NCBI GenBank assembly: GCA_020723105.1
Contig: DYJL01000008.1
Span: 10,564-74,563, forward strand
DNA from: Nitrospira japonica
GTDB taxonomy: Bacteria > Nitrospirota > Thermodesulfovibrionia > UBA6902
Reading direction: 5' to 3'
DNA length: 64,000 bases
Part shown: piece after piece, positions 2 to 14,557 of the stretch
Layout: every line of letters starts with the position of its first letter
How positions within the stretch are numbered: the first letter of the stretch is position 1
Notes under the pieces: generated by a model
Told to the model about the DNA's origin: nothing
Seen by the model: the letters and a program-made list of their open reading frames with translations, nothing else
Database searches by the model: none
Program-made: the position numbers and the translations under genes

Positions 2-1270
2 GGAATAGATGTAAGCGGAAGTATGAAAGGGGTGCCAATAATGGAGGCAAAAAGATCGGCATCAATATTTCTGGATCAGCTTGATAAAAAAGATTTTGTT
101 TCAATCATGAGCTTTGGAAGTAAAGTCATGTTCCTTACCGATTTTACCGAGAAAAAACATGAAGCAAGGGCGAAAATAGAGAGTCTTATTGCCAACGAAC
201 AGTGGACATGGCTGTATCAGGCCACTTATGAAGGGCTGGATAAGGCATCCAGAGCGCCAACCTCAAGAGTTGCTGTAGTGCTTCTCACTGACGGCAAGGA
301 TGAGGGCAGCCATAGGACTGAGGAAGAGGTGGTAGCGAGAATTGGTGGAACGCAGGTGCCTGTGTATACGCTTGGTTTCGGCCAAAATGCGCAGGTGGAA
401 TATCTTAAGAGAATAGCAGGTATAAGTAGGGGATATTTTCTTTTCACTCCAAATGCAGAGGATCTCTCAAAACTATATAGCATGGTGATAGACCAACTGA
501 AAAACCAGTATTTAATCAGATTTAGTCTTACAGGCCCTGCTGGTAACTATACCAGCATCGTAAAGCTTAATTATCGGGGGAAAGTAATAACAGCTCGCAG
601 GGGTTTCATGCATTTTATTGTCGGGCCGGAACCGGGTAGAAGTTTGAATCCGAAATTATGGCTGGGAATAATAACTTTGGTTTTTGTTATTGCAGGTGCG
701 GTCTTTTTTATAGCAAATCGTAAAAAACAAGGACACAAACAACCGCAAGAGAATGGGTCAATACCTGAAGTAAGTATAATGGCAAACAAAAAGATCAATC
801 CGATCGGTTTTTTTTCGGACACCTCGAAAGATTTCACGAAAACAGTTATAACCCCTTCACAGTCAAGGGGTGAGGTGGGTTTTGAAATAGATATACCACC
901 TATTCCGTTCACATTTTCCCTTGCAGACAAAAGAAATAAGAAAGAATATAACGAGGTTATAATAACCCGATATGATAAAGATAAAGAACACTTATTTTCC
1001 AATGAGAAAGTATATCTATTATTTTCAGACAGTTCAGTGTCGCGTCCTGACGAGGGAAGAGAAGGGCATGCCAAGATCTTTGTTGATGAAAGCACACAAA
1101 CATACAAATTGGAAGATCTGGGAAGTGCCTCAGGTACCAGAATCAACAATTACGGGCTGTTAAGGAATGGGGAAGTATGGGTCCTTACAGACGGAGATAT
1201 AGTCATTGTTGGGCATACATCCTTGCAGTTTTATGATAAGAGGCAATTAACTGCTGATACAACATTTTGA
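2..1270 (+). CDS. vWA-TM-FHA protein (5' end outside window)
   Basis: Frame is open from the window edge (nt 2-22 encode GIDVSGS with no stop). GIDVSGSM matches the vWA MIDAS motif DxSxS. A single TM segment follows (LWLGIITLVFVIAGAVFFIA). The C-terminal FHA signature is GSASGTRINNYGL...GDIVIVG. Confidence 0.6.
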   Translation, partial: GIDVSGSMKGVPIMEAKRSASIFLDQLDKKDFVSIMSFGSKVMFLTDFTEKKHEARAKIESLIANEQWTWLYQATYEGLDKASRAPTSRVAVVLLTDGKDEGSHRTEEEVVARIGGTQVPVYTLGFGQNAQVEYLKRIAGISRGYFLFTPNAEDLSKLYSMVIDQLKNQYLIRFSLTGPAGNYTSIVKLNYRGKVITARRGFMHFIVGPEPGRSLNPKLWLGIITLVFVIAGAVFFIANRKKQGHKQPQENGSIPEVSIMANKKINPIGFFSDTSKDFTKTVITPSQSRGEVGFEIDIPPIPFTFSLADKRNKKEYNEVIITRYDKDKEHLFSNEKVYLLFSDSSVSRPDEGREGHAKIFVDESTQTYKLEDLGSASGTRINNYGLLRNGEVWVLTDGDIVIVGHTSLQFYDKRQLTADTTF

Positions 1271-1282
1271 GGAGACAAGCTG

Positions 1283-1921
1283 ATGAATGAAAATGATAAT
1301 AAAACAAACAGAAAATCAGGCAATATTGCTGACTGGATAAATGAACAGAAAAAACACAAGGAACAGCATGGTCGAGGAAAAGATGAAGCAGACAATATCT
1401 GGCCGCCGGAACCGGTAAAACGAAAAGTTGCTGAGAACATGAAGAATCAGAGAACTGAAACAATGCAGGTACACAGCCATGATAAAGAGGATAAAAAAAC
1501 ACCGATCAATAACAGACAAGATGTGGCAGACAATATTGGGCTGCCAACACAGATTGATGGATTACCGCAAGGTATATATGCACATTTTTTGCTGACAAAC
1601 ATATCAGGACTGGGAAGGAAAAAAGGTATACCACGTTATATGAAGCTTGAAAAGACCAAAACGCTTATAGGGAAATATGCAAGTGCCCACATAAGACTTG
1701 ATGACGAAGACACTATTGAAATCAAACATGCAAAAATTATCTTTGAAGATACTGGTGGGAAGAAAGATTTTGTTATTTACCCTATAAATAATGCCAGTTT
1801 GTCTGTAAATGGCAGCACAGTGTCAGATAGCGGCATTGTATTACACAGTGGGGATACGGTAGAAATAGGCAGTGCAGAGCTCATCTTTTTCTATAAAGAT
1901 ATTAAAAGGAACCTATCATGA
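1283..1921 (+). CDS. FHA-domain protein
   Basis: C-terminal FHA motif: GKYASAHIRLDD...SLSVNGSTVSDSGIVLHSGDTVEIG. The polar N-terminal half is low-complexity. A 12-nt gap separates it from the upstream gene, and it overlaps the downstream gene (ATGA). Confidence 0.55.
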   Translation: MNENDNKTNRKSGNIADWINEQKKHKEQHGRGKDEADNIWPPEPVKRKVAENMKNQRTETMQVHSHDKEDKKTPINNRQDVADNIGLPTQIDGLPQGIYAHFLLTNISGLGRKKGIPRYMKLEKTKTLIGKYASAHIRLDDEDTIEIKHAKIIFEDTGGKKDFVIYPINNASLSVNGSTVSDSGIVLHSGDTVEIGSAELIFFYKDIKRNLS

Positions 1922-2643
1922 AAATAGGTCGTATAAGTGACTGTGGCATTGCAAGAGAACAGAACGAAGACTCATATATTATTGACGAAGCGATAGGACT
2001 GTATTTGGTTGCTGACGGGGTAGGAGGACATCAGGCAGGTGAAATAGCCAGCAGAACAGGAGCTGAAACTATTTGCAGAACAATAAAGAATAAACTTGCT
2101 GATCAAGATGGACAGAGTATAGAGTTAATAATAAAAGAGGCTATTGACAGCGCCAATAGGGAAGTATTAAATCAGGCGACAAGTAATTCTAACTTCCACG
2201 GTATGGGTTCTACAGTGGTTTTAGGATTATACAGGAATGACAAACTCTATATTGCACACGTAGGAGACAGCCGGGCCTATTTGATCAATTCTAATGATAT
2301 TATACTTTTGACGGAAGACCATTCTATCGTTGCCAGCCTTGTAAGAGCAGGAAAGATTACAGAAAAAGAGGCAAGAAATCACAACATGCGCCACATCATT
2401 ACACAGTGCCTGGGCAGTCAGGAATATTTTGGTCCTGAAATAAAAATTATTGATTTTAAAAAGGATGATACCCTCCTGTTATGCTCAGACGGGCTTACCG
2501 ATATGGTTGAAGATAGTAAGATTAAAAAGACTGTGCTCAAAAAAAGGAAAGACCTGCAGGATTGTGCCTGGGAATTAGTGAGATTAGCCAACAAGAACGG
2601 CGGACTGGATAATATAACCATTATTTTGGCAGAAAAAAATTAA
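1918..2643 (+). CDS. PP2C-family Ser/Thr protein phosphatase
   Basis: PP2C motifs are present: LYLVADGVGGHQAGEIAS, GMGSTVVLGLY, HVGDSRAYL and LLLCSDGLTDMV. Confidence 0.8.
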   Translation: MKIGRISDCGIAREQNEDSYIIDEAIGLYLVADGVGGHQAGEIASRTGAETICRTIKNKLADQDGQSIELIIKEAIDSANREVLNQATSNSNFHGMGSTVVLGLYRNDKLYIAHVGDSRAYLINSNDIILLTEDHSIVASLVRAGKITEKEARNHNMRHIITQCLGSQEYFGPEIKIIDFKKDDTLLLCSDGLTDMVEDSKIKKTVLKKRKDLQDCAWELVRLANKNGGLDNITIILAEKN

Positions 2644-2655
2644 AGAAATTAAGAA

Positions 2656-3606
2656 ATGTATGGAGGATTCTATATGAATTTTAAAAAGATAAAATTGGAT
2701 TTTGAAAACACTTTTGTGGTGTTTGCTACGGGTGCATTATTAACAGGGTTGATATTCCTGATCTTATACTTTCTACCCAACACTGTTTATTTGCGTATCT
2801 TCTTTTACAGAAGCTGGTATGTACAGTCAATAACAACATGGCTTTTCTGCACAGCAGTCCTATTTGTGATATTTAAATATATGCGTCTTAAGGTAGAAAG
2901 AAGTATCCTTGACAATAAGGTAATTATAGAACGGCTCGACTCCATTACTCTTCAGCACGCAAGAGATGTATTGGAGAAAATACCTGAAAAATACAGGGAT
3001 ACCATCAGTTTCAGACGTATAAGTGAGCTTTTGAGGGGATATATACATAGAGAAGAGGTGGTAAGACTCAATCAGGAACTTTCAAGGAGGGATGTAGAAC
3101 AGATAGAAGGAGGGCATCTTGTTTTAAACTCACTGAAACAGCTTGTCCCGGTACTTGGTTTTCTCGGGACCGTCATTGGTTTATCTTTGGGAATGGTAAA
3201 TTTTTCTGATGTATCCGAAACCGTCGGCAACATAGAAAGTTTGAGGGTTAAATTAAAAGACCTTGCTGCATCCCTCAGCGTTGCCTTTGATACGACACTG
3301 TTAGGACTTGGTTATACGATCGTGCTTGTATTGATTTCATCATTATTAAGACGCAAAGAGGAGTCTTTTATTGCTGATGTAGATAACAAGTCCAGGGCGC
3401 TGATCACGAAATTAAGATATTTTTCAGATGCAGCGGAAAGGTCAGAAGGCAGTCACGATGGTGGTTATGGCAAGGAAATTGTAAATGCTCTCCGTCAGAA
3501 TGGAGACGCCATTTTGAAAAAGTTGGATGAGTTGAAGGACGGCTTACAAAAACCGCCTCACTACGAAATTATTGTTCAGCCTGTAAAAGGAAAAGATGTT
3601 GAATAA
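2656..3606 (+). CDS. MotA/TolQ/ExbB-family proton channel protein
   Basis: There are 2 N-terminal TMs and a cytoplasmic loop. The family-typical motif VPVLGFLGTVIGL sits in TM3, and TM4 has A..L..T..GL..I spacing (LAASLSVAFDTTLLGLGYTIVL). Confidence 0.65.
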   Translation: MYGGFYMNFKKIKLDFENTFVVFATGALLTGLIFLILYFLPNTVYLRIFFYRSWYVQSITTWLFCTAVLFVIFKYMRLKVERSILDNKVIIERLDSITLQHARDVLEKIPEKYRDTISFRRISELLRGYIHREEVVRLNQELSRRDVEQIEGGHLVLNSLKQLVPVLGFLGTVIGLSLGMVNFSDVSETVGNIESLRVKLKDLAASLSVAFDTTLLGLGYTIVLVLISSLLRRKEESFIADVDNKSRALITKLRYFSDAAERSEGSHDGGYGKEIVNALRQNGDAILKKLDELKDGLQKPPHYEIIVQPVKGKDVE

Positions 3607-4546
3607 GAAAGGAAGCATAGAGATACTCATGCTGCTGGGCTGTCTGGTCGGGGTTATTGTCTTTCTGAGCTTTGCAATGGGGGTTTTAAGTCTTGCTTCT
3701 AAAATAGAAAAGGATAATATTCCGGACCATTCCAGATTATTGGAGAAACGGAAGAATTTACTGGAAGAAAAAAAGAAGAAAGAAGAAGATGTTGCGAATC
3801 TTACAAAAGAGAGCGGAGAATTAAGAAATAAAATATCGGAAAAAGAGAAGGATTTTGAAAAAATAAAATTGCCTGAAAAAGAGCAGGAGAAAAAAGAGGA
3901 ATTGATCAGTCTTAAGAAACGGCTCGATGAATTACTTAGACTGATAAAGACTAAACAGGATGAGCTTGAAAAAATCAAACAGGAGTTGGCCGGATTAGAA
4001 GAATATGGAAAAAAAGAAGAAGACCTTAAGAAATTAAGAGAAGAACTGGAGGCATTAAAAAGGAAAAAGAAAGATAAAGAAGAAGAAATAGCAAAAACAT
4101 CTTTTTATAAAAATAATGCAATGATAAAGGAAATAGAAGAACTCAGGAAGGCGATTAAAGAAGCTGAAGAAAAAATGAAAGAGCTGAAAAATAAACTAAA
4201 GGAGGGAAATGATCCCGTATTGGAGGGCATCAGAGGAAGCCTTTCTATAAAAAATCCCCTTTTTGTTGAATGTAAGAATAATATGATTATATTGCACCCG
4301 GATAAAAAAGCCCTGACTGTTTCTGACCTGGGGAAGAACAATACTTTTTCGAATATTAATGTTACGCATAGAGGTATCGTGTTTTTCATAAGGCCGGATG
4401 GTTTTGATACTTTCAACGAAAGTTTTGGACTTGCACAAAAAATAGCAGATAAATCTAATTTGGACCTTGCTTATGAGCCTATTGATTCAGATTATGATCT
4501 TGATTCTTTAATCGAAAAACTGGGGAAAAGAAATGAAAAGAGATGA
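3596..4546 (+). CDS. TolR/ExbD-like single-TM protein with long K/E-rich coiled-coil stalk
   Basis: N-terminal TM (IEILMLLGCLVGVIVFLSFA) is followed by ~190 aa of heptad-like K/E/L repeats. The C-terminal domain (NPLFVECKNNMIILHPDKK...GIVFFIRPDGFDTFNESFGLAQKIADKSNLDL) resembles the ExbD/TolR periplasmic fold pattern. It overlaps the upstream gene by 11 nt. Confidence 0.45.
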   Translation: MLNKKGSIEILMLLGCLVGVIVFLSFAMGVLSLASKIEKDNIPDHSRLLEKRKNLLEEKKKKEEDVANLTKESGELRNKISEKEKDFEKIKLPEKEQEKKEELISLKKRLDELLRLIKTKQDELEKIKQELAGLEEYGKKEEDLKKLREELEALKRKKKDKEEEIAKTSFYKNNAMIKEIEELRKAIKEAEEKMKELKNKLKEGNDPVLEGIRGSLSIKNPLFVECKNNMIILHPDKKALTVSDLGKNNTFSNINVTHRGIVFFIRPDGFDTFNESFGLAQKIADKSNLDLAYEPIDSDYDLDSLIEKLGKRNEKR

Positions 4547-5606
4547 TTTTTCTTTTCTCAAGCTTTTTGAAGACCCGCTTATGACAATCATTGCCATTGT
4601 ACTGTTCAGCACGGTCTGGATGATACTACCCAAAGAGACAAAGCCCGTTGACGCTAAGGTGTATCTTACCCTTGATGAACTTGAAACTCTGAAGAGAGAG
4701 ATTGATTCGCTCGATAAAACAATAAAAAAACTGAAAATGGAAATTAAGCGGCGGAACGAAGAGATCAAATGGATTGAGAGCAGGATAGAAGAAACTGTAA
4801 ATGAGAAAATCAAAGACGTCCAGGGAAAAAATACAGAGCAGTTAAAGAACGAAGCTGCAGCGACAATAGACAGGATCAAGAAAGAAAAAGAGGAACTCAA
4901 CCGCCTGGAAGAGGAATTGGAAAAAGCAAAAATGAAGCTGGCTCAAATTAAAGGTAAAGATAATAGTGAACTTATCATAGAAACAATAAGAATGAAAAAA
5001 GAAATTGAAAAAATTAAAGAAGATATCGGCCTGTTGGAAGAGAGAATAAGACTGGCTTTAAAAGACCTGAAAAAAGAAAAAGACAATAAGAATACCCAGG
5101 AGAATTTGATTGCTCAACTGCAAAATGAATTAAAGACAAAACAGACTGAAGTTGGGCAACTTGAAGAACAGGTAAAAGGAATAGGGACAGGAGGAGGATT
5201 TAAACCAATTGTTAAATCTGAGAAAAACCCTTTCTTTATAGAACTGGTAAACAATCATTTGTTTCCCGTAGATGATGTCCATTATGAAGCTGAATATGGT
5301 TATATAAAAATCAAGGATGGCAGAACAGTGCAGGCATCCAAAAAAATCCGAAAGTCTTCCAGCGGTGAACATATCAGCAAAATTGAGAATTCTGAAAGCA
5401 ACTTCAATAACATATTGAAAAAACTTGATGTTAGTAAAGAACGTATTATCTTCTTAGTCCATAATAATTCTTTTGAGATCTTCAGAAAAGCGAGGGCGAT
5501 AGCTTTAAAAAAGGGGATCGAAACAGGCTGGTGGACACGCGAAGGTGATTCAATAATAATCACTTATGGCGGAGGCGGGACAGACATAGGCTCCTACAAA
5601 GAATGA
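4533..5606 (+). CDS. TolR/ExbD-like single-TM protein with long coiled-coil stalk (paralogue of 3596-4546)
   Basis: N-terminal TM has an acidic residue at its start (FEDPLMTIIAIVLFSTVWMIL), like the conserved Asp of ExbD/TolR. About 200 aa of K/E-rich coiled coil follow. The C-terminal domain (NPFFIELVNNHLFPVDD...ERIIFLVHNNSFEIFRKARAIALKKGIETGW) resembles the ExbD/TolR domain. It overlaps the upstream gene by 14 nt. Confidence 0.5.
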   Translation: MKRDDFSFLKLFEDPLMTIIAIVLFSTVWMILPKETKPVDAKVYLTLDELETLKREIDSLDKTIKKLKMEIKRRNEEIKWIESRIEETVNEKIKDVQGKNTEQLKNEAAATIDRIKKEKEELNRLEEELEKAKMKLAQIKGKDNSELIIETIRMKKEIEKIKEDIGLLEERIRLALKDLKKEKDNKNTQENLIAQLQNELKTKQTEVGQLEEQVKGIGTGGGFKPIVKSEKNPFFIELVNNHLFPVDDVHYEAEYGYIKIKDGRTVQASKKIRKSSSGEHISKIENSESNFNNILKKLDVSKERIIFLVHNNSFEIFRKARAIALKKGIETGWWTREGDSIIITYGGGGTDIGSYKE

Positions 5607-5690
5607 AAATAACTAACAGAGAGCAAGATAAAATACTTTTTCAGGAGAATTAGTCAGTAACAATTTTAATTGGAACAGGAGGGAACAAAA

Positions 5691-7079
5691 ATGAAATTAC
5701 ATCAAATCAAAAAAACAGTTTTCAGAAGCAGTATGCTGGTTTTACTGTTTCTTGTTGCTTTATTTATATTCAACCTTAAAATCTCAAACGCTCAATCCAC
5801 CCTGATAGTAAGTAAAGAAGTTGAGGGCGCAGTCCTTGCTGAAGACTGGGCAAAGGTTGCGAAATTGCTTGATGACGTGAAGGCAGAAACACCCGAACCG
5901 GTACTTCGACTGATCAAAGGACATGCTGATCTGGCATTGAACAGGAACAATGAGTCTTTATGTATGTTCATAAGCGTGGCTTCATCAGATAACGATCTTC
6001 AGGAGTGGGACAAGTGGACACGGGATTTTGCGGGAAGAAATCCAAAAAGCATAATTGCGTATTACTTCAGAGGAGATGCACTGGCAAGAATAAAGAAATG
6101 GGATGAGGCATTGACGGCATTTAACAAGGCTCTGGAACTTAATCCAAAACATGCGATGGTTTTGAATGCGAGAGGGGTTGTGTATGCGGCGAAGAGGGAT
6201 CTGACCCTTGCACGTAATGATTTCGATAATGCTATCAGCATCAACCAGTCTTTCGCAGATGCCTATGCAAATCTCGGTTCAAGATTTATACAGATGAAAG
6301 ACGGAGCGGAAGGAGCGATAAATGAATTTGATAAAGCGCTGAGGATTTCGCCAGGGTTCGCGCTTGCTCTCCATGGAAAGGGGAACGTGGAAGTAATTCT
6401 TTTTCAAATAGAGGAAGCAGAAAAAAATCTTAATAAGGCAAAGGAATATGGGACGTGCGGTAAGGAACTCTTTAATGAAAACATTATTAACATTGCAGCT
6501 TATGTTCATGGAGTGGATAAAAAGGAATTGATTGCAATGATTCCAAAAGATGGAGATGGAATAGGGATGTCATTAAAGAGAACATTTGAAAATCCTGTAG
6601 GTTCATCCGGGTTAAAGCAATTTGAGAATTCATTAAAGAATTTTGAGCGTTTTGGGGGTAAGCCTGGAGTTGGACAGTGGAGTTTTAATAGAGTTGGTGA
6701 AAGTTTCTATCATTTATCTCCTACTGAGAAAATTACAGCCAATAAAATGGTGGATAACTTCCTGGATAAGAATCCAAATTTAAGCAGGCATTTCTATGAA
6801 GGCGCAAAAGATTTCGCACATAATCCTATCAGAAGCTTTGGATACGAAGTAAAAGGGAAAATTGGTGGAACAATGGGTGGGATGGAAGCAGGAGTGAAAA
6901 TTCCCGCCTCTACTTCTGATCAAGCATATAGAGACATCGGCAAGGGGTTCCAAGATAAGGCTATGAATCGTATGAGTAATCTTCCGGAAGGCGTCCTTGC
7001 AAGCCTTGCCGATGCAAATTGGGATGAGGGTCAATGGCCGTTTGTAGAGTACTATGGCCTTATTTACAGCATGAAGTAA
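5691..7079 (+). CDS. Secreted TPR-repeat protein
   Basis: AGGAGGG lies 8 nt upstream of the ATG at 5691, so the longer 5670 start is disfavoured. A signal peptide is present (LVLLFLVALFIFNLKISNAQS). At least 5 TPR-like 34-aa units are visible (AYYFRGDALARIKKWDEALTAFNKALELNP, AMVLNARGVVYAAKRDLTLARNDFDNAISIN and others). Confidence 0.6.
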   Translation: MKLHQIKKTVFRSSMLVLLFLVALFIFNLKISNAQSTLIVSKEVEGAVLAEDWAKVAKLLDDVKAETPEPVLRLIKGHADLALNRNNESLCMFISVASSDNDLQEWDKWTRDFAGRNPKSIIAYYFRGDALARIKKWDEALTAFNKALELNPKHAMVLNARGVVYAAKRDLTLARNDFDNAISINQSFADAYANLGSRFIQMKDGAEGAINEFDKALRISPGFALALHGKGNVEVILFQIEEAEKNLNKAKEYGTCGKELFNENIINIAAYVHGVDKKELIAMIPKDGDGIGMSLKRTFENPVGSSGLKQFENSLKNFERFGGKPGVGQWSFNRVGESFYHLSPTEKITANKMVDNFLDKNPNLSRHFYEGAKDFAHNPIRSFGYEVKGKIGGTMGGMEAGVKIPASTSDQAYRDIGKGFQDKAMNRMSNLPEGVLASLADANWDEGQWPFVEYYGLIYSMK

Positions 7080-7104
7080 TAAATGTTTAATGCGGGGTAT
7101 TGGA

Positions 7105-10100
7105 ATGAAAACAGCTAAATCGAAAACATTGCTTTTTACATTTATTTCCGTCCTGTTTCTCTCTTGCATTGCATATGCGGACCAATTTATTGCCTTTTCC
7201 CTCAATAAAGCAGAAATGGAAATGAGAGAATCAGGACGTTCCCATAAAAACAGGTTATTCGAACTTGGAGGAATAACCCGGCCTGTTGGAATTGTATATG
7301 ATGCCAACCGCAGTGATTTGATTGTAGTTGGGCAGATAAATGAGAAAGAACAAAAAATATCTCTTGATGATTTTGTAGTTGCCTTGAGAGCGATTTCAGT
7401 GTACAAGGAATCTCCGTTGGTGAGCATTGACAGATCTGATGAGACTGAAACAACCAAAAGGCAAAGAGTGCGCTTTGAGGGGGGGATAGAAAATACTAAA
7501 TTCGGAAAAGACTTGCTTGAGGCGGATATCATTCTGAAAAAAATGGGAGTCGGGGAGCTGCGGACCGATATTTGGGGTGTTAAATCCTATGTCGATATGT
7601 CGGCGGAGTATTGGAATAAGACGGGGATTGAGGATTCAGTTTCCAGCCGATTCTGGTTTAAACCTTCAAAAGAAAAATCTTTTGTTGGCGTTCGCGATGG
7701 CGTAGTCATCGTAAAAAAATTAGTAATTGATGTAAAAACGGAAGTTATGGGAGCAATTAATTCACACCGACCTGTGGATGACCGAGCAGGAAGTTATGAT
7801 GAGATCGGAGATAGATTTGCCAGTGCAGTGGCAGCAAATATTGATGATATTGATTCATATTATTCTGAGGTAAAAAGGTTAGACCCTCTTTTTCGATTGG
7901 TTGGTCTGGCTGAGGGTATCAAAAGAGAGGCTTTCAACTTCAAACCTGATATAAATTTCTGGTTGAATGAATATAGAGTAGAACATATAGAAACGCTAAA
8001 GGATTATCCACTGTTAGTGAAAGAAAAGAGACTGGAAAAAAATGGGGAAAACCGTCAAATGACAATTAATGGCGGCATAGAATTAAGACCACTTCTTGTA
8101 GATCTTAATGCTGGTGTTGTAACAGCATTAAGAGATATTGTTATTAAATCCAGACCTGAAGGGAATCCGTTAATATGGAAATTGCCGCTTGAAGGATGGC
8201 AACTACCTGAGGATTCAAAAATAGATATTACTGCATTCGGTAAAAAGTTAAGAGATTCAACTGCGGGGGTAAACGGTATGAGCTTAACTAAGCGGATTTC
8301 CCCTGTTGATTCTCCCGGAAATCAGAAAATAAATTATAAATCATCTCCCCTGTCCGACGGGGGCTCAAACTTCAATTTTACAGATAGATTTTCTCCTCAG
8401 AAATACTCCCCTCACGTCGGCGGAGTTATGCTCCAGGGTGTAGCAAAGGTTTCAGGCGGGGAACAGGCGAAGGTTGATCTCACAAGCGGAAATTTTTCTT
8501 TGATCGTGGGCGGGCAGAATGCGCGGCTTGCACCCGAGGCATACAGAAAATTCATAACAGCGCTATGGTCTGTATATTACAGTCAGAAAGACCCCGGTAT
8601 TTCCATCGATCCGATCGGATGTTTTTATTTTGATCCCTATGACCCTGAAAGGGACAAAAAATTTGCGGAATGCCTGAAACGCTATGAGAAAAAGGAAGAG
8701 AAGCACATGGTCCGCTACATCGGCAAAGTGATCAACACGGACCTTGGGAGAGTCATGCGGGAGGCGGACTACGTGATGAAAAAGTGGTCGGTCGGAACAG
8801 AGAAGCCTGGTATTTCAGGATTCAAAAGCCCGGATGAATACAGGGGCTGGAAAACTACTGATAGCGAAGGATCGAGCCGCTTCTGGTTTGTCCCTGAAGA
8901 TATGAAGTTCAAACGTGGCGGTGACATGCTCCTTTTTGAGGACGGCAGGATGACAGTAAAAACAGAGTATATGTTTAAAAATGATGAAGGTGCACAGGCA
9001 GATCCGTACAACGAAAAGTTTGCCGGGTTCTTTACCGAACACTATGGAGAAATTGCCAATAAATATCCTGTCTATCAGGAACTTTTTGAATATGCGAAAA
9101 TGGTGAGCCTGGCCAAATATCTCAAAGAGCAGGGTCTTCCCATGTTCTGGTTCCTGATGGCTAACAAGGATCTGGTCATTACCGAGGATTCTCCCGGTAC
9201 TGTGGAAGCGCTGGCAAAGGGATCGGATTATTATAAAAACTTATATATAATGGGCGGAGTAGACCTTGGCTTTGATGCCAGACGCGAAGGCAATTATGTG
9301 TATGACCGTGAGGCAGTAAGGGCCATAAATGAAGCTGTTTCCAAGCTCCCTTTAAATGCTTATTCAAAAACCACACTATCTGCAGGGGACATAACTCCTG
9401 CGAGTTCAGAGCCGTTCTCCTTTAACCTTGGAAAGGACAGCTTCACTGTTGTCCCGCAACATTCGCTTACATCAGGCAAGGACAGACATGGGATCAGATA
9501 CCAGACAGACATAGCTTTAAGAGGGACAGGCTTACAACTGACCGGACGGGCGCTTGAGACTATAAAGAACAAAATTATTAGGTGGATGATGGTACAGGAA
9601 CTGAATCCGATATTACGGACTAAAGATACCACTAAATTATCTGAAGCTGAAATTGAAGCCCTTAATAAGAGAATTACAGAAGAAACAGAAAAAGCTAAAA
9701 CGAAAGCAGGAAAGATCATTGAAAAGATGGAGAGTTTAAAAAATATTAAATATACAGATGAAAATAAATTTGTAAAAGCTCTTGAAGAAACCATAGGCCG
9801 GGAAAAAACAGATATTTTTAAGAGAATGGTTATGGAATTTGCCTATTACAACACTAATCTGGACCTCGTACGCTATTTTAAACCGGGACAACAGGACATC
9901 GGAGAGTTCGGTAAAGGCTGGCATTTATTGATACCCTATCGTCTTAAACCCGCAGGCGATGCCAAAAGAAAATTCCTTAATGTGTTGATTCCGGAGAAGA
10001 TGGCTGTAGAAAACCAGCTTACCGGGGATCAAGAGGTGCTCACATTCAGTACAGACCGTTATACAGTTGCAGGTTATGTGCCTGCAAAACTTGAGTCGAG

Positions 10101-10812
10101 TCAGGTGGTGGGACTATTCATGATGTCTGATGCCTCATATCGTCTTGCGGACAAGTTGGGTAATGAGTTTTGGTTTGACCGGGCAGGTTATCTTACCGAC
10201 ATGATCTTTTCTGAGGACCATCATATTCATGTTGAATATGCTGACAGTTTTACTGACGCTTTTGAAGAAATCCCTTATCAGATCCAGCCTGCAGGTAAAG
10301 AGCAAACGGCATTTCTTAATGTCTTCATACCAAGAAAAATGACTGTTAAGAACCTCATCAGTGGAGATAGCGAGATCCTGACCTTCAGTGAAGAAGGCGA
10401 ATTTGCTGGATATGTTCCTGAAAATGCGGAAAAGAGCAGCTATAAAATATTAGCGCTAATGTCAGATGCATCTTTCCATCTGCTTGATAAGAATGGGAAT
10501 GAGACGTCATTCAGTTCCTTGCGGACTTTTGATGGAAAATTTAAAGAGATGGCTTTTTCTTCTGATCGCAGAATGGTGAGATCCGTGTCACAGGGCAATC
10601 AAAAGATCGGTTTTAAATATTCTATAGACAGATCAGGAGAAGTTATGATAGCCAGCGCCAATCTCTCGGAAGGCGAAGAAACAAAACTGAGTTATATAGT
10701 GAAATATAAATATGATAAGGAAGGCAGGCTCTATAGTGTAACTGGGACGGGGAATACAATAGCTAAAACTCAACATCAAAATAATGAAATGCTGATGCAT
10801 GTGAAAAAATAG
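7105..10812 (+). CDS. Large secreted protein (1236 aa), unknown function, internal tandem repeats
   Basis: Signal peptide MKTAKSKTLLFTFISVLFLSCIAYA precedes DQF. An ~100-aa tandem repeat starts at PAGDAKRKFLNVLIPEKM... and repeats at PAGKEQTAFLNVFIPRKM.... A second repeated motif is SSRFWFKPSKEK / SSRFWFVPEDMK. I recognise no known catalytic motif. Confidence 0.7.
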   Translation: MKTAKSKTLLFTFISVLFLSCIAYADQFIAFSLNKAEMEMRESGRSHKNRLFELGGITRPVGIVYDANRSDLIVVGQINEKEQKISLDDFVVALRAISVYKESPLVSIDRSDETETTKRQRVRFEGGIENTKFGKDLLEADIILKKMGVGELRTDIWGVKSYVDMSAEYWNKTGIEDSVSSRFWFKPSKEKSFVGVRDGVVIVKKLVIDVKTEVMGAINSHRPVDDRAGSYDEIGDRFASAVAANIDDIDSYYSEVKRLDPLFRLVGLAEGIKREAFNFKPDINFWLNEYRVEHIETLKDYPLLVKEKRLEKNGENRQMTINGGIELRPLLVDLNAGVVTALRDIVIKSRPEGNPLIWKLPLEGWQLPEDSKIDITAFGKKLRDSTAGVNGMSLTKRISPVDSPGNQKINYKSSPLSDGGSNFNFTDRFSPQKYSPHVGGVMLQGVAKVSGGEQAKVDLTSGNFSLIVGGQNARLAPEAYRKFITALWSVYYSQKDPGISIDPIGCFYFDPYDPERDKKFAECLKRYEKKEEKHMVRYIGKVINTDLGRVMREADYVMKKWSVGTEKPGISGFKSPDEYRGWKTTDSEGSSRFWFVPEDMKFKRGGDMLLFEDGRMTVKTEYMFKNDEGAQADPYNEKFAGFFTEHYGEIANKYPVYQELFEYAKMVSLAKYLKEQGLPMFWFLMANKDLVITEDSPGTVEALAKGSDYYKNLYIMGGVDLGFDARREGNYVYDREAVRAINEAVSKLPLNAYSKTTLSAGDITPASSEPFSFNLGKDSFTVVPQHSLTSGKDRHGIRYQTDIALRGTGLQLTGRALETIKNKIIRWMMVQELNPILRTKDTTKLSEAEIEALNKRITEETEKAKTKAGKIIEKMESLKNIKYTDENKFVKALEETIGREKTDIFKRMVMEFAYYNTNLDLVRYFKPGQQDIGEFGKGWHLLIPYRLKPAGDAKRKFLNVLIPEKMAVENQLTGDQEVLTFSTDRYTVAGYVPAKLESSQVVGLFMMSDASYRLADKLGNEFWFDRAGYLTDMIFSEDHHIHVEYADSFTDAFEEIPYQIQPAGKEQTAFLNVFIPRKMTVKNLISGDSEILTFSEEGEFAGYVPENAEKSSYKILALMSDASFHLLDKNGNETSFSSLRTFDGKFKEMAFSSDRRMVRSVSQGNQKIGFKYSIDRSGEVMIASANLSEGEETKLSYIVKYKYDKEGRLYSVTGTGNTIAKTQHQNNEMLMHVKK

Positions 10813-10906
10813 AATTTAATTTAATTGTTATGATATAAGCTCATTACTGTTCAATCAGGCAAGATAAGATAAAATAAAATTTTTCGGAAACAGAAAGGGA
10901 GACTAT

Positions 10907-11848
10907 ATGAAGAGAATACTCGTAACAGGCGGTGCTGGATTCCTCGGCTCGCATCTTTGCGGGAGGTTGCTGAAAGAGGGGCACGAAGTAATATGTGTTG
11001 ATAATTTCTATACAGGCCGGCGTTCCAACATCGCAGGTTTCTTAGATAACCCTATGTTTGAAGTAATACGACATGATGTTTGTTTCCCTTTATACATTGA
11101 AGCAGATGAAATATATAACCTGGCCTGTCCGGCCTCGCCGATTCATTATCAGTTTGATCCTGTACAGACTACAAAGACCTCGGTTCACGGCGCCATAAAC
11201 ATGCTGGGACTTGCAAAACGGATTAAGGCAAAAATATTTCAGGCCTCAACTTCTGAAGTCTACGGCGACCCGCAGGTTCACCCGCAGCCCGAATCTTATT
11301 GGGGCCATGTAAATCCTATTGGTTTTCGATCCTGTTATGATGAGGGAAAAAGGTGCGCTGAGACCCTTTTCTTTGATTATTACCGACAGCATAAGCTTAA
11401 GATAAAAGTCGCAAGAATATTTAATACGTATGGACCGAGAATGCACCCTAATGACGGCCGGGTAGTGAGCAATTTCATTATGCAGGCCTTGCATGGGGAC
11501 CCTATTACAATTTATGGCAACGGGCAACAGACCCGGAGTTTCTGCTATGCAGATGATATGATAGAGGGCTTTATAAAATTCATGAATTCTCCTGATGATT
11601 TTACGGGCCCGGTAAATCTCGGCAACCCTGGTGAATTTACAATACTGGAGCTGGCTGAAAAGGTTATAAAACTGACCAGGTCCAAGTCCAGGATAGTTTA
11701 TAAACCTCTGCCGTATGATGATCCCTCACAGCGCCAACCCAACATAAAGCTCGCAAAAAGCAAACTCAAATGGGAGCCGAAGGTAAACCTGGAAGAAGGG
11801 CTTAAGGAAACTATCAAATACTTTAAGAAATTAAAAATTGATCCCTGA
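10907..11848 (+). CDS. UDP-glucuronate decarboxylase (UDP-xylose synthase), SDR family
   Basis: The NAD-binding motif [12 protein letters not shown] and catalytic YxxxK (CYDEGKR) are present. There is high overall similarity to UXS/ArnA-type decarboxylases ([15 protein letters not shown]). Confidence 0.85.
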
Positions 11849-11863
11849 AATTTATAATATCGT

Positions 11864-14557
11864 TTGAAAAACATAATTTTAAATATCAACGGCAGAAGTA
11901 TTCAGACTGTTGAAGGCCGAACAGTCCTGAAGGCTGCGAGAGAAAACGGGATCTACATCCCTACCCTTTGTTACCATCCCCGTACAAAACAGGCCGGCAA
12001 GTGCAGAATATGTGTTGTAGAAGTTGAAGGTTTGCCTGGTTTGAGAATATCCTGTTCGCTCGAAGCAAAAGAGAACATGGTCGTGCTTACAAATACAGAG
12101 CGCGTCCTTGAAACCAGAAAGATGATTGTTGAGTTGTATCTGTCAAGCGGCAAACACAACTGTATTTCATGTGAAGCAAACGGCCGTTGTGAACTGCAGG
12201 AAGTTACATACCGTCTTGGCATAGAGAAGTCCACCTTCCCTGTATTGACTAAAGATTATCCGCCTGATACATCCAGCCCGATGATAATCAGGGACCTGAA
12301 TAAGTGCATTCAGTGTTACCGGTGCATTGCCGGATGCAATAATATCGCAGTTAATGAAGTCCTCGATATGGGGTTTCGGGGCAGCAATATGACTGTAGTC
12401 TGCGATACAAACAAGCCGATGGGAAAATCTTCATGCGTGATTTGCGGCGAATGCGTTCAGCTCTGTCCGACAGGCGCGCTGACAGAGAAAAAGGCCTTTG
12501 GCAAGGGAAGGCCCTGGGAGATAAAAAAAATCAAGACCACATGCCCCTACTGCGGTGTCGGCTGTCAGGTTCATCTGCATGTCAAGGATAATGAGATTGT
12601 GAAAGTGACTGGTGTGGAGGAGGTTGCTCCCAATTACGGCAGCTTATGCATAAAGGGAAGGTTCGGATACGATTTTGTTCATTCTCCTGAAAGATTGAAA
12701 ATGCCGCTTTTAAGAAAGAATGGTAAATTTGTTGAAGTCAGTTGGGATGAGGCGCTCGATTTTACTGCAAGCAGGCTCCTTGAAATTAAAAAGGCCCGGG
12801 GGCCGGAATCTATTGTCGGCATCGGCTGCGCAAGGACTACGAATGAGAACAACTATGTTATGATGAAATTCATGCGTGCGGCAGTTGGCACCAACAACGT
12901 AGACCACTGTGCGCGCACCTGACACGCTCCAACTGTAGCCGGTCTGGCTGCAACTCTGGGTGCAGGCGCAATGTCCAATTCCATCAGGGAGATTGAGAAC
13001 AGCCCGGTCCTGTTTGTAATTGGTTCAAATACAACAGAAGCACATCCGGTTATTGCCAACAGTATGAAGAGGGCCGTCAAGAAGGGCAGCATCCTTATTG
13101 TTGCAGATCCGAGAAAAATTCCCCTTACGCGCTGGGCCACAAAACATTATCAGCATAAGGTAGGTTCAGACATTGCCTTGCTGAATTCAGTGATGCATGA
13201 GATTATAAAAAACGGCTGGCACAACAAAGAATTCATCAGCAGCTATACCGAAGGATTTGATGAATTACAAAAGGTCGTCAGCGCTTATCCACCGGAACGC
13301 GCTTCAGAGATATGCGGAGTTTCAGAGGATGGAATCAGAGAACTTGCAATGCTGCTCGGCACGGCTGAGAGAGTTGCGCTTTATTACACACTCGGAATTA
13401 CCGAACACGTTACAGGGACAGACAACGTCAAAACCTGTGCAAACCTGCAAATGCTTCTCGGCAATATCGGCAAGGAATATACCGGCGTTAATCCATTAAG
13501 GGGGCAGAACAATGTTCAGGGAGCCTGTGACATGGGAGTGCTTCCGGATGTGTTTACAGGATATCAGAAGGTGGCTGATGAAACGGTCCGGGAGAAGTTT
13601 GCAACTGCATGGGGTATTAATTCTTTGCCTGAAACCGCAGGCACAAAAATACCGGCCATGTTTGACGGAATGCTTCACGGCGACATTAAGGCGCTCTATC
13701 TTGTTGGTGAAAATGTAGTGATGTCAGAACCCCATCAGGCGCATACAATCAGGGCGCTTGAAAAACTCGAGCTTCTCATTGTGCAGGATATTTTTTTCAA
13801 TGAGACTGCGCAATATGCGCATGTGGTTTTACCGGCTGCGTGCTTTGCCGAGACAGAAGGGACCGTCACCAATACTGAGAGGCGGGTTCAGCGCGTCAGA
13901 AAGGCCGTGGAACCGCCAGGACAGGCTAAGGAAGACTGGTGGATTATCAGTGAGCTTGCAAGAAGGATGGGCTACCTTATGGACTACACGTCAACAGAGC
14001 AGATATGGGAGGAAGTTCGCAAATTAACGCCAAACATTTCCGGTATTACATTTGAAAGGATCGAGCGAGAGGGCCTTCAATGGCCCTGTCCGGATATTAA
14101 TCATGCCGGTACATGTTATCTTTACTGTGACAATATATTTCCCTGCGGCAAGGCCAGGTTTCAACCTGCACAGTGGAAACCGCCGGCAGAGGTTCCTGAC
14201 AGGGAATATCCGTTTGTGCTTACAACAGGCAGAAGGCTCTGGCATTATCACACAGGGACCCAGATACGAAAATCTGCAGGATTTGATGATGTCTTCCCTG
14301 AGGAACTTATCGAGGTAAACAAGGAAGATGCCGGAAGTCTGGGTATAAAAAATGGCGATTATATCCGCGTTGTCTCACGCAGAGGAATGCTGAGAGTAAA
14401 GGCCTGGGTTACGGACCACGTTTCACCAGGCTTGTGCTTTATGACCTTTCACTTTCATGAGGCCTGTGCAAACGCTCTGACGAACAATGCCTTTGACCCG
14501 TTTGCAGGCACTGCCGAATATAAGGCATGTGCAGTGAGGCTGGAGAAAGAGGGATAG
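11864..14557 (+). CDS. fdhA: Formate dehydrogenase alpha subunit, selenocysteine-containing (NAD-type with N-terminal 2Fe-2S/4Fe-4S NuoG-like domain)
   Basis: TTG start. The N-terminus has a 2Fe-2S ferredoxin and 4Fe-4S motifs (CIQCYRCIAGC, CVICGECVQLCP). Context VDHCART-TGA-HAPTVAGLAATLGAGAMSNS places the TGA at 12920-12922 at the conserved Sec position of FdhA/FdhF. The downstream ORF (12971-14557) is in the same frame. A SECIS-like hairpin lies 13 nt after the UGA. Confidence 0.85.
12935..12951 (+). other. SECIS-like hairpin downstream of fdhA UGA
   Basis: GUAGCC-GGUCU-GGCUGC forms a 6-bp stem (including one G-U pair) with a GGUCU apical loop, like the E. coli fdhF SECIS apical loop. Confidence 0.55.

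Follow-up and report, generated by a model that had tools for sequence, protein, structure and literature searches.

Two paralogous long-stalked membrane proteins downstream of a MotA/ExbB/TolQ-family gene as the probable two-part axle of an uncharacterised proton motor

Introduction

To our knowledge, the pore of MotAB, ExbBD, TolQR, GldLM and ZorAB is in every case occupied, by demonstration or by assumption, by a symmetric homodimer, and it is still debated how such motors transmit force or torque across the periplasm. GldM provides a periplasmic shaft of 18 nm, and the paired TolR homologues AglQ and AglS may or may not form a heterodimer (PMC9389320). Here we describe two adjacent genes, termed A and B, in a 64,000-nucleotide (nt) stretch of Nitrospira japonica DNA (GenBank assembly GCA_020723105.1, contig DYJL01000008.1, positions 10,564 to 74,563; hereafter the window), which follow directly on a MotA/ExbB/TolQ-family gene and encode two different membrane proteins with long coiled-coil stalks. 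The pair is a real, conserved and uncharacterised variant of the 5:2 proton-motor theme, in which A and B probably make up a two-part central axle.

Results

A and B are obligately paired paralogues

The window genes listed here and below all lie on the + strand, in the operon order vWA-transmembrane (TM)-FHA protein, FHA protein, PP2C phosphatase, MotA-like protein, A, B, TPR protein and a protein of 1,240 amino acids (aa). The MotA-like open reading frame (ORF) overlaps A by 11 nt, and A overlaps B by 14 nt. The three central genes and their parts are:

2656..3606, +, MotA/ExbB/TolQ-family membrane protein (PF01618, E=7.4e-12; four hydrophobic segments)
3596..4546, +, protein A, 316 aa, putative A-type axle subunit without a conserved TM acid
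3620..3697, +, TM helix of A, residues 9-34, SIEILMLLGCLVGVIVFLSFAMGVLSLA (hydropathy 2.77 over 19 residues; alignments)
3713..4210, +, coiled-coil stalk of A, residues 40-205 (166 aa; heptad a/d enrichment)
4232..4540, +, C-terminal alpha/beta head of A, residues about 213-315
4533..5606, +, protein B, 357 aa, putative B-type axle subunit with a conserved TM Asp
4572..4628, +, Asp14 (codon 4572-4574) and TM helix of B (DPLMTIIAIVLFSTVWMIL; orthologue alignments)
4656..5180, +, coiled-coil stalk of B, residues 42-216 (175 aa; heptad a/d enrichment)
5208..5567, +, C-terminal alpha/beta head of B, residues about 226-345 (the A core plus an inserted beta-hairpin)

A and B are bitopic proteins: in each, a TM helix at the N-terminus leads into a charged heptad stalk, which carries a folded alpha/beta domain (the head) at the C-terminal end. 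A first-pass annotation of the window had read both ORFs in this way, and both were recovered at the coordinates above together with all of the peptides it had quoted. They are also paralogues, as it had suggested, because BLASTP aligns A with B over the distal stalk and the head (E=5e-4), phmmer cross-matches join A-type to B-type heads in other genomes, and an A-only head-domain profile matches a B-only one with an hhalign probability of 97.9% (E=3e-13). That reading overlooked, however, a division into two types, A and B, which are distinct from each other and obligately paired. On contigs bearing close homologues of the MotA-like gene (about 80, one from Desulfobacca acetoxidans), the next genes are always A-like and then B-like. 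Scans of genome and metagenome collections with a MotA-like profile revealed 160 additional loci, and in essentially every sufficiently long locus a hidden Markov model of the head matches the two consecutive ORFs after the MotA-like gene. The 64 distinct MotA-like/A-type/B-type pairs come from Desulfobacterota-like metagenome-assembled genomes (MAGs), Brocadiaceae, WOR-3, LCP-89, Schekmanbacteria, Myxococcota, Planctomycetota and Verrucomicrobiota.

The head defines a large superfamily that lacks annotation: of 1.84 billion cluster representatives searched with a head-only profile, 2,447 match at E<=1e-3 (clusters at 50% identity). None of 84 scanned representatives carries a Pfam family on the head domain, the sampled public records name these proteins "hypothetical protein", and a full-text literature search found no description of the head or axle family. 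A precomputed annotation places PF28533 (DUF8429, weak) on the Desulfobacca-type A protein (L001, 10980-11660); this family lies outside the Pfam copy used for our scans, and so recent a domain of unknown function (DUF) may already cover part of the head family.

Several variants were observed in the course of these scans. The planctomycete A-types (525-939 aa) bear a second, C-terminal copy of the head (for example P0136, L113, L158 and L163). Two MAGs carry a split or truncated B-type gene (L010, 12095-12989; L012, 11861-12571), a 139-aa N-terminal and a 266-aa C-terminal ORF lying in different frames in L010; we ascribe the damage to frameshifts, from assembly errors or in pseudogenes. Alphaproteobacterial loci (L051; L061; L073 at 10161-11360; also L054, L056, L059 and L062) have a different MotA/ExbB-like gene, and the two genes after it encode dissimilar single-TM proteins, about 180 and 220 aa long, each with a TM Asp (LAMVDAFVGG and YQLDAVVSLF) and neither with a Pfam match. 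These may represent another axle family of the heterodimer type.

A conserved transmembrane aspartate is found in B

The TM helix of B (residues 15-32) is preceded by the acidic pair E13-D14, of which D14 alone is conserved, the orthologues reading FQDP. An Asp is present at this position in 13/13 close orthologues and in 61 of the 62 B-type sequences overall. The acidic residue that had been noted at the TM entrance of the second protein is thus upheld for D14, while E13 drops out. The same alignments yielded no conserved acid for A: a TM Asp occurs in 17/64 A-type sequences and in none from the window's clade, and E9 of A is Glu in about 10 and Ala in about 6 of 16 close orthologues. As judged from these alignments, A is a subunit without a conserved TM acid. 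Each type has its own TM motif, which in the window's clade reads (E/A)xLLLL(C/G)CLVGVVAF for A and F(Q/E)DP(L/V)xT(I)(I)A(L)(I)LL for B, and in the wider family SLFPFL(A/S/D)(V/I)LxCxxG for A-types and DSFLD(I/V)xxN(I/V)VGIL for B-types.

Some loci encode pairs with no stalk (L015, with 157 and 212 aa, L024 and L032). These proteins are ExbD-sized and read ITLFPFLDIMT and LDSFLDIMTN, matching the TM pattern of E. coli ExbD and TolR (TPFIDVM and VPLLDVL). When the full-length short forms were compared with ExbD by hhalign, the alignment was collinear and marginally significant (P=0.0018; reversed control, P=0.056), with the signal residing in the TM segment (scores of 20.6 for the TM segment only, 17.7 for the reversed control and 11.2 for the domain alone).

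The stalks of A and B co-vary in length

The stalk of A contains 46% K+E (56% charged residues, 2 Pro, 4 Gly) and that of B 37% K+E (47% charged, 0 Pro). Hydrophobic residues at heptad positions a and d are enriched over shuffles by z=6.9 standard deviations (SD) in A and 5.4 SD in B, as found by an in-house heptad scan against shuffled sequences, with no trained coiled-coil predictor; each stalk contains 4-6 register shifts. Fully extended, at 0.1485 nm per residue, the stalks would measure 25-26 nm, in agreement with the earlier estimate of 20 nm or more. The same annotation had regarded the long stalk as an insertion into the two paralogues. The stalk is real, but it is a family trait, neither a local insertion nor peculiar to the window genome: the stalks of 113 TM-anchored members of the head family have a median length of 116 aa (10th-90th percentile, 88-168). 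Matches of A, B and 16 relatives to SMC, Rad50 and JetC models (Pfam, NCBIfam and PADLOC) were rejected as composition-driven coiled-coil similarity, not homology.

Among genomes, the distance from TM helix to head varies from about 0 to about 240 residues, and A and B vary together (Pearson 0.81, Spearman 0.65 over 64 pairs), although the P-value of this correlation is not to be taken literally because the pairs are phylogenetically related and the boundaries approximate. Examples of A/B stalk lengths are -5/-7, -3/-8, 63/59, 88/86, 94/88, 138/137, 161/174, 163/170 (window) and 239/240. Such co-variation is what in-register pairing predicts, and thus argues for a heterodimeric A-B stalk.

The head domain is extracytoplasmic, with a possibly TolR-compatible fold

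Several members of the head family (P0139, P0141, P0144, P0151, P0156 and others) are proteins of about 270-340 aa with a cleavable signal peptide, two tandem heads and no TM anchor, indicating that the head domain is extracytoplasmic. Together with the Arg/Lys-rich N-termini found family-wide, these secreted versions point to a topology with the N-terminus in the cytoplasm (N-in). A cytoplasmic stalk, in the manner of ZorA, was ruled out on the same two grounds.

The A head has the element order beta-beta-beta-alpha-beta-alpha-beta-alpha and contains the motifs NPLFVEC, FFIRPDGF and AYEPID. AlphaFold2 modelled both C-terminal regions confidently, that of B with a predicted local distance difference test (pLDDT) score of 80.9 and a predicted template modelling (pTM) score of 0.76, and that of A with pLDDT 74.7 and pTM 0.71. 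The underlying alignments have 10 rows, since the word-index protein search with A and B was dominated by coiled-coil words and returned 9 proteins; a search of the same type with the B head alone gave no match and did not recover B itself. H. influenzae TolR (2jwk) aligns with the head models over 63-64 of its 74 residues, which is suggestive of a TolR-compatible fold in these models.

A number of results weigh against a TolR/ExbD identity of the heads, and to that extent against the axle reading. The A and B models are not independent, because one common alignment underlies both. RNase-H-like folds (RuvX and Pelota) score as high as TolR on the models, Foldseek found no match in the PDB at E<0.05, and a profile search of PDB sequences with the head profile gave nothing usable. 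Neither A nor B matches PF02472 at E<=1, nor do 16 syntenic relatives, stalk-less forms included, at E<=10, nor 84 head-family representatives; canonical ExbDs in loci L044, L064 and L068, serving as positive control, match it at E=1e-11 to 1e-20. Head profiles compared with a verified ExbD alignment gave hhalign P=0.43 and 0.45, which is not significant, in a comparison of limited power because the ExbD alignment is narrow (Neff, the effective number of sequences, 4.6) and secondary structure was unused. The profile check of the heads against ExbD/TolR that had been suggested at first pass therefore came out negative, with no PF02472 match in A, B or 100-odd relatives. The ExbD/TolR-like reading itself is supported in part, by gene position, bitopic topology and the Asp of B, and finds no sequence support in the head. 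In length, too, A and B (316 and 357 aa) differ from ExbD/TolR members, which have about 130-200 aa and a short flexible linker; of the relatives, only L015, L024 and L032 are of such a length. Membership of the head in PF02472 is not demonstrable, whereas its homology to TolR/ExbD is plausible from context.

The MotA-like protein has the pore-helix motifs of ExbB and TolQ

The product of 2656-3606 is presumed to be the pentameric part of the motor. It carries the invariant motifs PVLGFLGTVxGL and SVAF(D/E)TTLL, which we take to be the Thr- and acid-bearing pore helices of ExbB and TolQ, and P165, G168, T172, T213 and T214 are invariant. A conserved cytoplasmic tail ends in the motif PPxYExxVQP. 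The equivalog models of ZorA, TolQ, ExbB and MotA match the protein weakly and far under their cutoffs, and a profile search of PDB sequences gave nothing usable, with TolQ at E ~0.3.

Secreted partners and signalling genes

The remaining genes of the operon in the window are:

23..1270, +, vWA-TM-FHA protein (Pfam VWA, E=6e-11; FHA, E=1.4e-5; 5' end cut at the window edge)
1283..1921, +, cytoplasmic FHA-domain protein (Pfam FHA, E=8e-7)
1918..2643, +, PP2C Ser/Thr phosphatase, Stp1-like (NCBIfam NF033484, E=1.7e-77, above cutoff)
5670..7079, +, secreted TPR protein with signal peptide (Pfam TPR_1 and TPR_2, E=1e-15 to 1e-16)
7090..10812, +, secreted 1,240-aa protein, here called BIG (weak DUF1598 match), candidate load or partner

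A secreted protein of 1,100-1,240 aa accompanies the MotA-like, A and B genes in every sufficiently long close-clade locus, and the TPR gene is syntenic in most of them. At its C-terminal end the TPR protein bears the conserved motif DEGxWPF....YGL(I/L)Y, which stops at most a few residues short of the terminus. BIG gave no Pfam match above cutoff, no relative in a profile search of PDB sequences and no internal repeats by self-BLAST. Its mature N-terminus, beginning 1-2 residues past the signal-peptidase site, carries the strand-like motif x(F/Y)(V/I)A(Y/F)SLxxAE...GGIT...G(M/V)VYD, which is conserved in L001, L003, L007, L011, L013, L089 and other homologues. This strand may recall the N-terminal TonB box and the N-terminus of TolB, a likeness that is only an analogy.

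The kinase, vWA-FHA, FHA and PP2C genes belong to a subset of close-clade loci only. The vWA-TM-FHA gene was found in part of the close clade, and its full-length copy, on a Logan contig of the same organism, encodes 513 aa with a signal peptide (L167, 5197-6738); the FHA gene at 1283..1921 is syntenic in L001, L007, L008, L088, L089 and L168. L167 also shows what is encoded just upstream of the window, namely a PEGA-domain Ser/Thr kinase of 585 aa and an ORF of 203 aa. The layout of periplasmic vWA, kinase, PP2C and FHA resembles the threonine-phosphorylation switch of type VI secretion.

Elsewhere in the window, the ORF 11864-12922 (+) ends with NVDHCART at a TGA, and the ORF 12971-14557 continues in the same frame (CART*HAPTVAGL). 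Read together, 11864-14557 looks like one alpha subunit of a formate-dehydrogenase-type molybdopterin oxidoreductase with an in-frame selenocysteine codon at 12920-12922. No tRNA genes or Rfam families were found in the window.

Discussion

A proposed two-part axle in a MotA/ExbB-type pentamer

Taken together, the obligate pairing, the co-varying stalks and the Asp of B make it probable that an uncharacterised 5:2 proton motor of the MotA/ExbB type has A and B as the two parts of its central axle. The N-terminal helices of A and B would lie side by side within a pentamer of the 2656-3606 product, where B alone would give a protonatable Asp (D14), facing T172 and D212-T213-T214 of the pentamer, so that the motor would have a single proton-binding site. 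Proton flow would then drive a stepwise relative rotation, like that of MotAB, ExbBD and TolQR. Outside the membrane, the A and B chains would be wound in register into a parallel, segmented coiled-coil heterodimer about 25 nm long, placing two TolR-like alpha/beta heads at its tip, at or past the peptidoglycan and close to the outer membrane. At this distance from the inner membrane the heads may engage the secreted TPR protein and BIG, whose conserved N-terminal strand is a candidate handle for them. From the cytoplasmic side, the Ser/Thr kinase, the PP2C phosphatase and the FHA proteins, with the periplasmic vWA sensor, may gate assembly or activity. For this scheme we infer a 5:1:1 stoichiometry, rotation, a division into fixed and turning elements, contact with the large protein and a biological output. 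The axle may turn, in the way proposed for GldM, or it may be anchored inside a turning pentamer, in the way proposed for MotB and TolR.

Further points count against this proposal besides those on the head fold and the caveat on the stalk correlation. The 4-6 heptad breaks per chain mean that the stalk may be jointed instead of a rigid shaft, and some clades keep a constant offset of about 25 residues between the A and B stalks. In addition, most of the data would suit a B2 dimer occupying the pore, with A bound to the exterior. A fuller version of the proposal, to which we give tentative and rather low credence, has the pentamer turning or pulling an asymmetric axle, a shaft tuned by evolution from 0 to about 36 nm, paired heads that grip the N-terminal strand of the large protein as TonB does a TonB box, a switch by Ser/Thr phosphorylation, and a widespread, unrecognised class of machines.

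Alternative readings

The alternative that survives best, though we consider it doubtful, is that A and B are a static tether whose heads hold the peptidoglycan or an outer-membrane complex while the pentamer turns, with the output at the inner membrane or in the cytoplasm, for example on the FHA or vWA-TM-FHA protein. The TolR-like fold match of the heads agrees with it, as do the conserved tail of the MotA-like protein ending in PPxYExxVQP and the cytoplasmic FHA, kinase and phosphatase genes in the same operon. Moreover, current models hold MotB, TolR and ExbD anchored while the pentamer rotates (PMC9389320). However, the kinase/FHA module is missing in L003, L093 and L011-L013, yet the 1,100-1,240-aa protein is always there, a spacer of 0-240 residues fits poorly with peptidoglycan at a fixed depth, and neither a peptidoglycan-binding motif nor an OmpA-like domain was detected with Pfam and NCBIfam.

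It is improbable that B forms a homodimeric axle (B2) in the pentamer, with A as a TonB/TolA-like transducer on its exterior and a three-stranded stalk. The lack of an Asp in 47/64 A-types and the more hydrophobic A helix, with its conserved C-x-x-G, are in keeping with such an arrangement, matched stalk lengths suit a trimer as well as a dimer, and the Ton and Tol systems have a third bitopic protein at the motor periphery (PMC12204202). On the other hand, A as read from its sequence has no SHLS/His motif of TonB or TolA, the A-type Asp stands in an ExbD-like context (LFPFLDIL) in 17/64 genomes, pointing to descent from a pore helix, the heads of A and B are homologous, unlike those of TonB and ExbD, and one-to-one gene pairing with translational coupling suggests equal stoichiometry.

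We regard it as very improbable that A and B are a bitopic scaffold of the PilN/PilO or GspL/GspM kind, serving a trans-envelope apparatus outside the MotA-like channel. PilN/PilO share the layout of TM helix, coiled coil, small alpha/beta domain and heterodimer, and one relative has a weak T2SSM match (E=0.062), but genes for a type II secretion system or type IV pilus were found in no locus, and a scaffold would explain neither the conservation of the TM Asp nor the obligatory presence of a MotA-like neighbour.

Hardly any credence can be given to a Zorya-like anti-phage system, or to generic coiled-coil membrane proteins without a motor role: although ZorA models are the best NCBIfam and PADLOC matches of the MotA-like protein (E about 1e-6) and the stalks match SMC- and JetC-type models, the latter matches are driven by composition, and the head domain, TM motifs and synteny are conserved across phyla. 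Zorya is excluded because the ZorA scores (18-28 bits) lie far below cutoffs of 100-700, ZorB, ZorC, ZorD and ZorE are unmatched, and the coiled coil belongs to the B-like subunits outside the cell and not to the A subunit inside, the wrong subunit and the wrong side of the membrane for Zorya.

Implications

If A and B are indeed a heterodimeric axle, its obligate pairing and single Asp would offer a direct test of whether one protonation site suffices for such a motor. The matched stalks of 0 to about 240 residues constitute a natural length series for mechanical work across the envelope, and annotation of the head family would bring to light many motor operons so far overlooked in Planctomycetota, Desulfobacterota, Myxococcota and candidate phyla. 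As its output, the machine may move or secrete the 1,240-aa protein, or it may maintain the envelope.

Comparison with known systems

Closest to A and B in role are ExbD and TolR (PF02472), which are likewise encoded directly downstream of a MotA/ExbB/TolQ-family gene and are bitopic with the N-terminus inside. A TM Asp near the cytoplasmic end is common to them and B only, and the short relatives carry motifs of the PF(L/I)D type. In contrast to these homodimers, with a disordered linker of about 20 residues and a partner gene for TonB or TolA, the locus has two distinct paralogues, of which only B has the Asp, with coiled coils 166-175 residues long, and neither partner gene. The A/B pair plausibly works like ExbD/TolR and descends from it.

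In its arrangement of one TolQ-like and two different TolR-like genes, the locus comes closest to the gliding motor AglR-AglQ-AglS of Myxococcus xanthus, which serves a trans-envelope machine with FHA-domain and TPR components (PMC9389320). At the window locus there is a weak GltG FHA match, and no homologues of the Glt partner proteins were detectable. Unlike A and B, AglQ and AglS are short, ordinary TolR homologues which both have the Asp and no coiled-coil stalk. Published operons of a TolQ-like and two unlike TolR-like genes, with TPR and vWA neighbours, have been proposed as novel trans-envelope systems driven by proton motive force. Compared here by description only, they are without described coiled-coil stalks, and their vWA proteins are proposed transducers with TonB-like SHLS helices, whereas the order in the window's vWA protein is signal peptide, vWA, TM and FHA.

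The flagellar stator subunits MotB and PomB have in common with the pair a TM Asp, a position after MotA and a periplasmic dimerising domain. The plug helix and the OmpA-like peptidoglycan-binding domain of MotB were not detected in A or B with Pfam and NCBIfam (PF00691 for the latter), nor were flagellar genes found in the loci. TonB and TolA are further removed, as neither TM helix contains a His, TonB_C and TolA are unmatched in Pfam and NCBIfam, and the long helical spacer of TolA domain II resembles the stalks in concept only. Similarly, A and B match no PilN, PilO or T2SSM profile and show no ferredoxin-like domain.

ZorA-ZorB is a 5:2-type motor with a very long coiled coil, as proposed here for the window locus. 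Its coiled coil, however, is the cytoplasmic tail of ZorA, and ZorB is a peptidoglycan-binding homodimer; genes for ZorC, ZorD and ZorE are absent here, and the setting of the window is not a defence island. The closest mechanical analogy to a stalk of about 25 nm is provided by GldL-GldM and PorL-PorM, the motor of gliding and type 9 secretion, where the inner dimer serves as a long shaft to a complex near the outer membrane. GldM, PorM and GldL gave no match in Pfam or NCBIfam, the upstream gene belonging to PF01618 and not to GldL, and the two shafts are built differently: that of GldM is a homodimer of four globular domains, and that of A and B would be a coiled coil of two paralogues.

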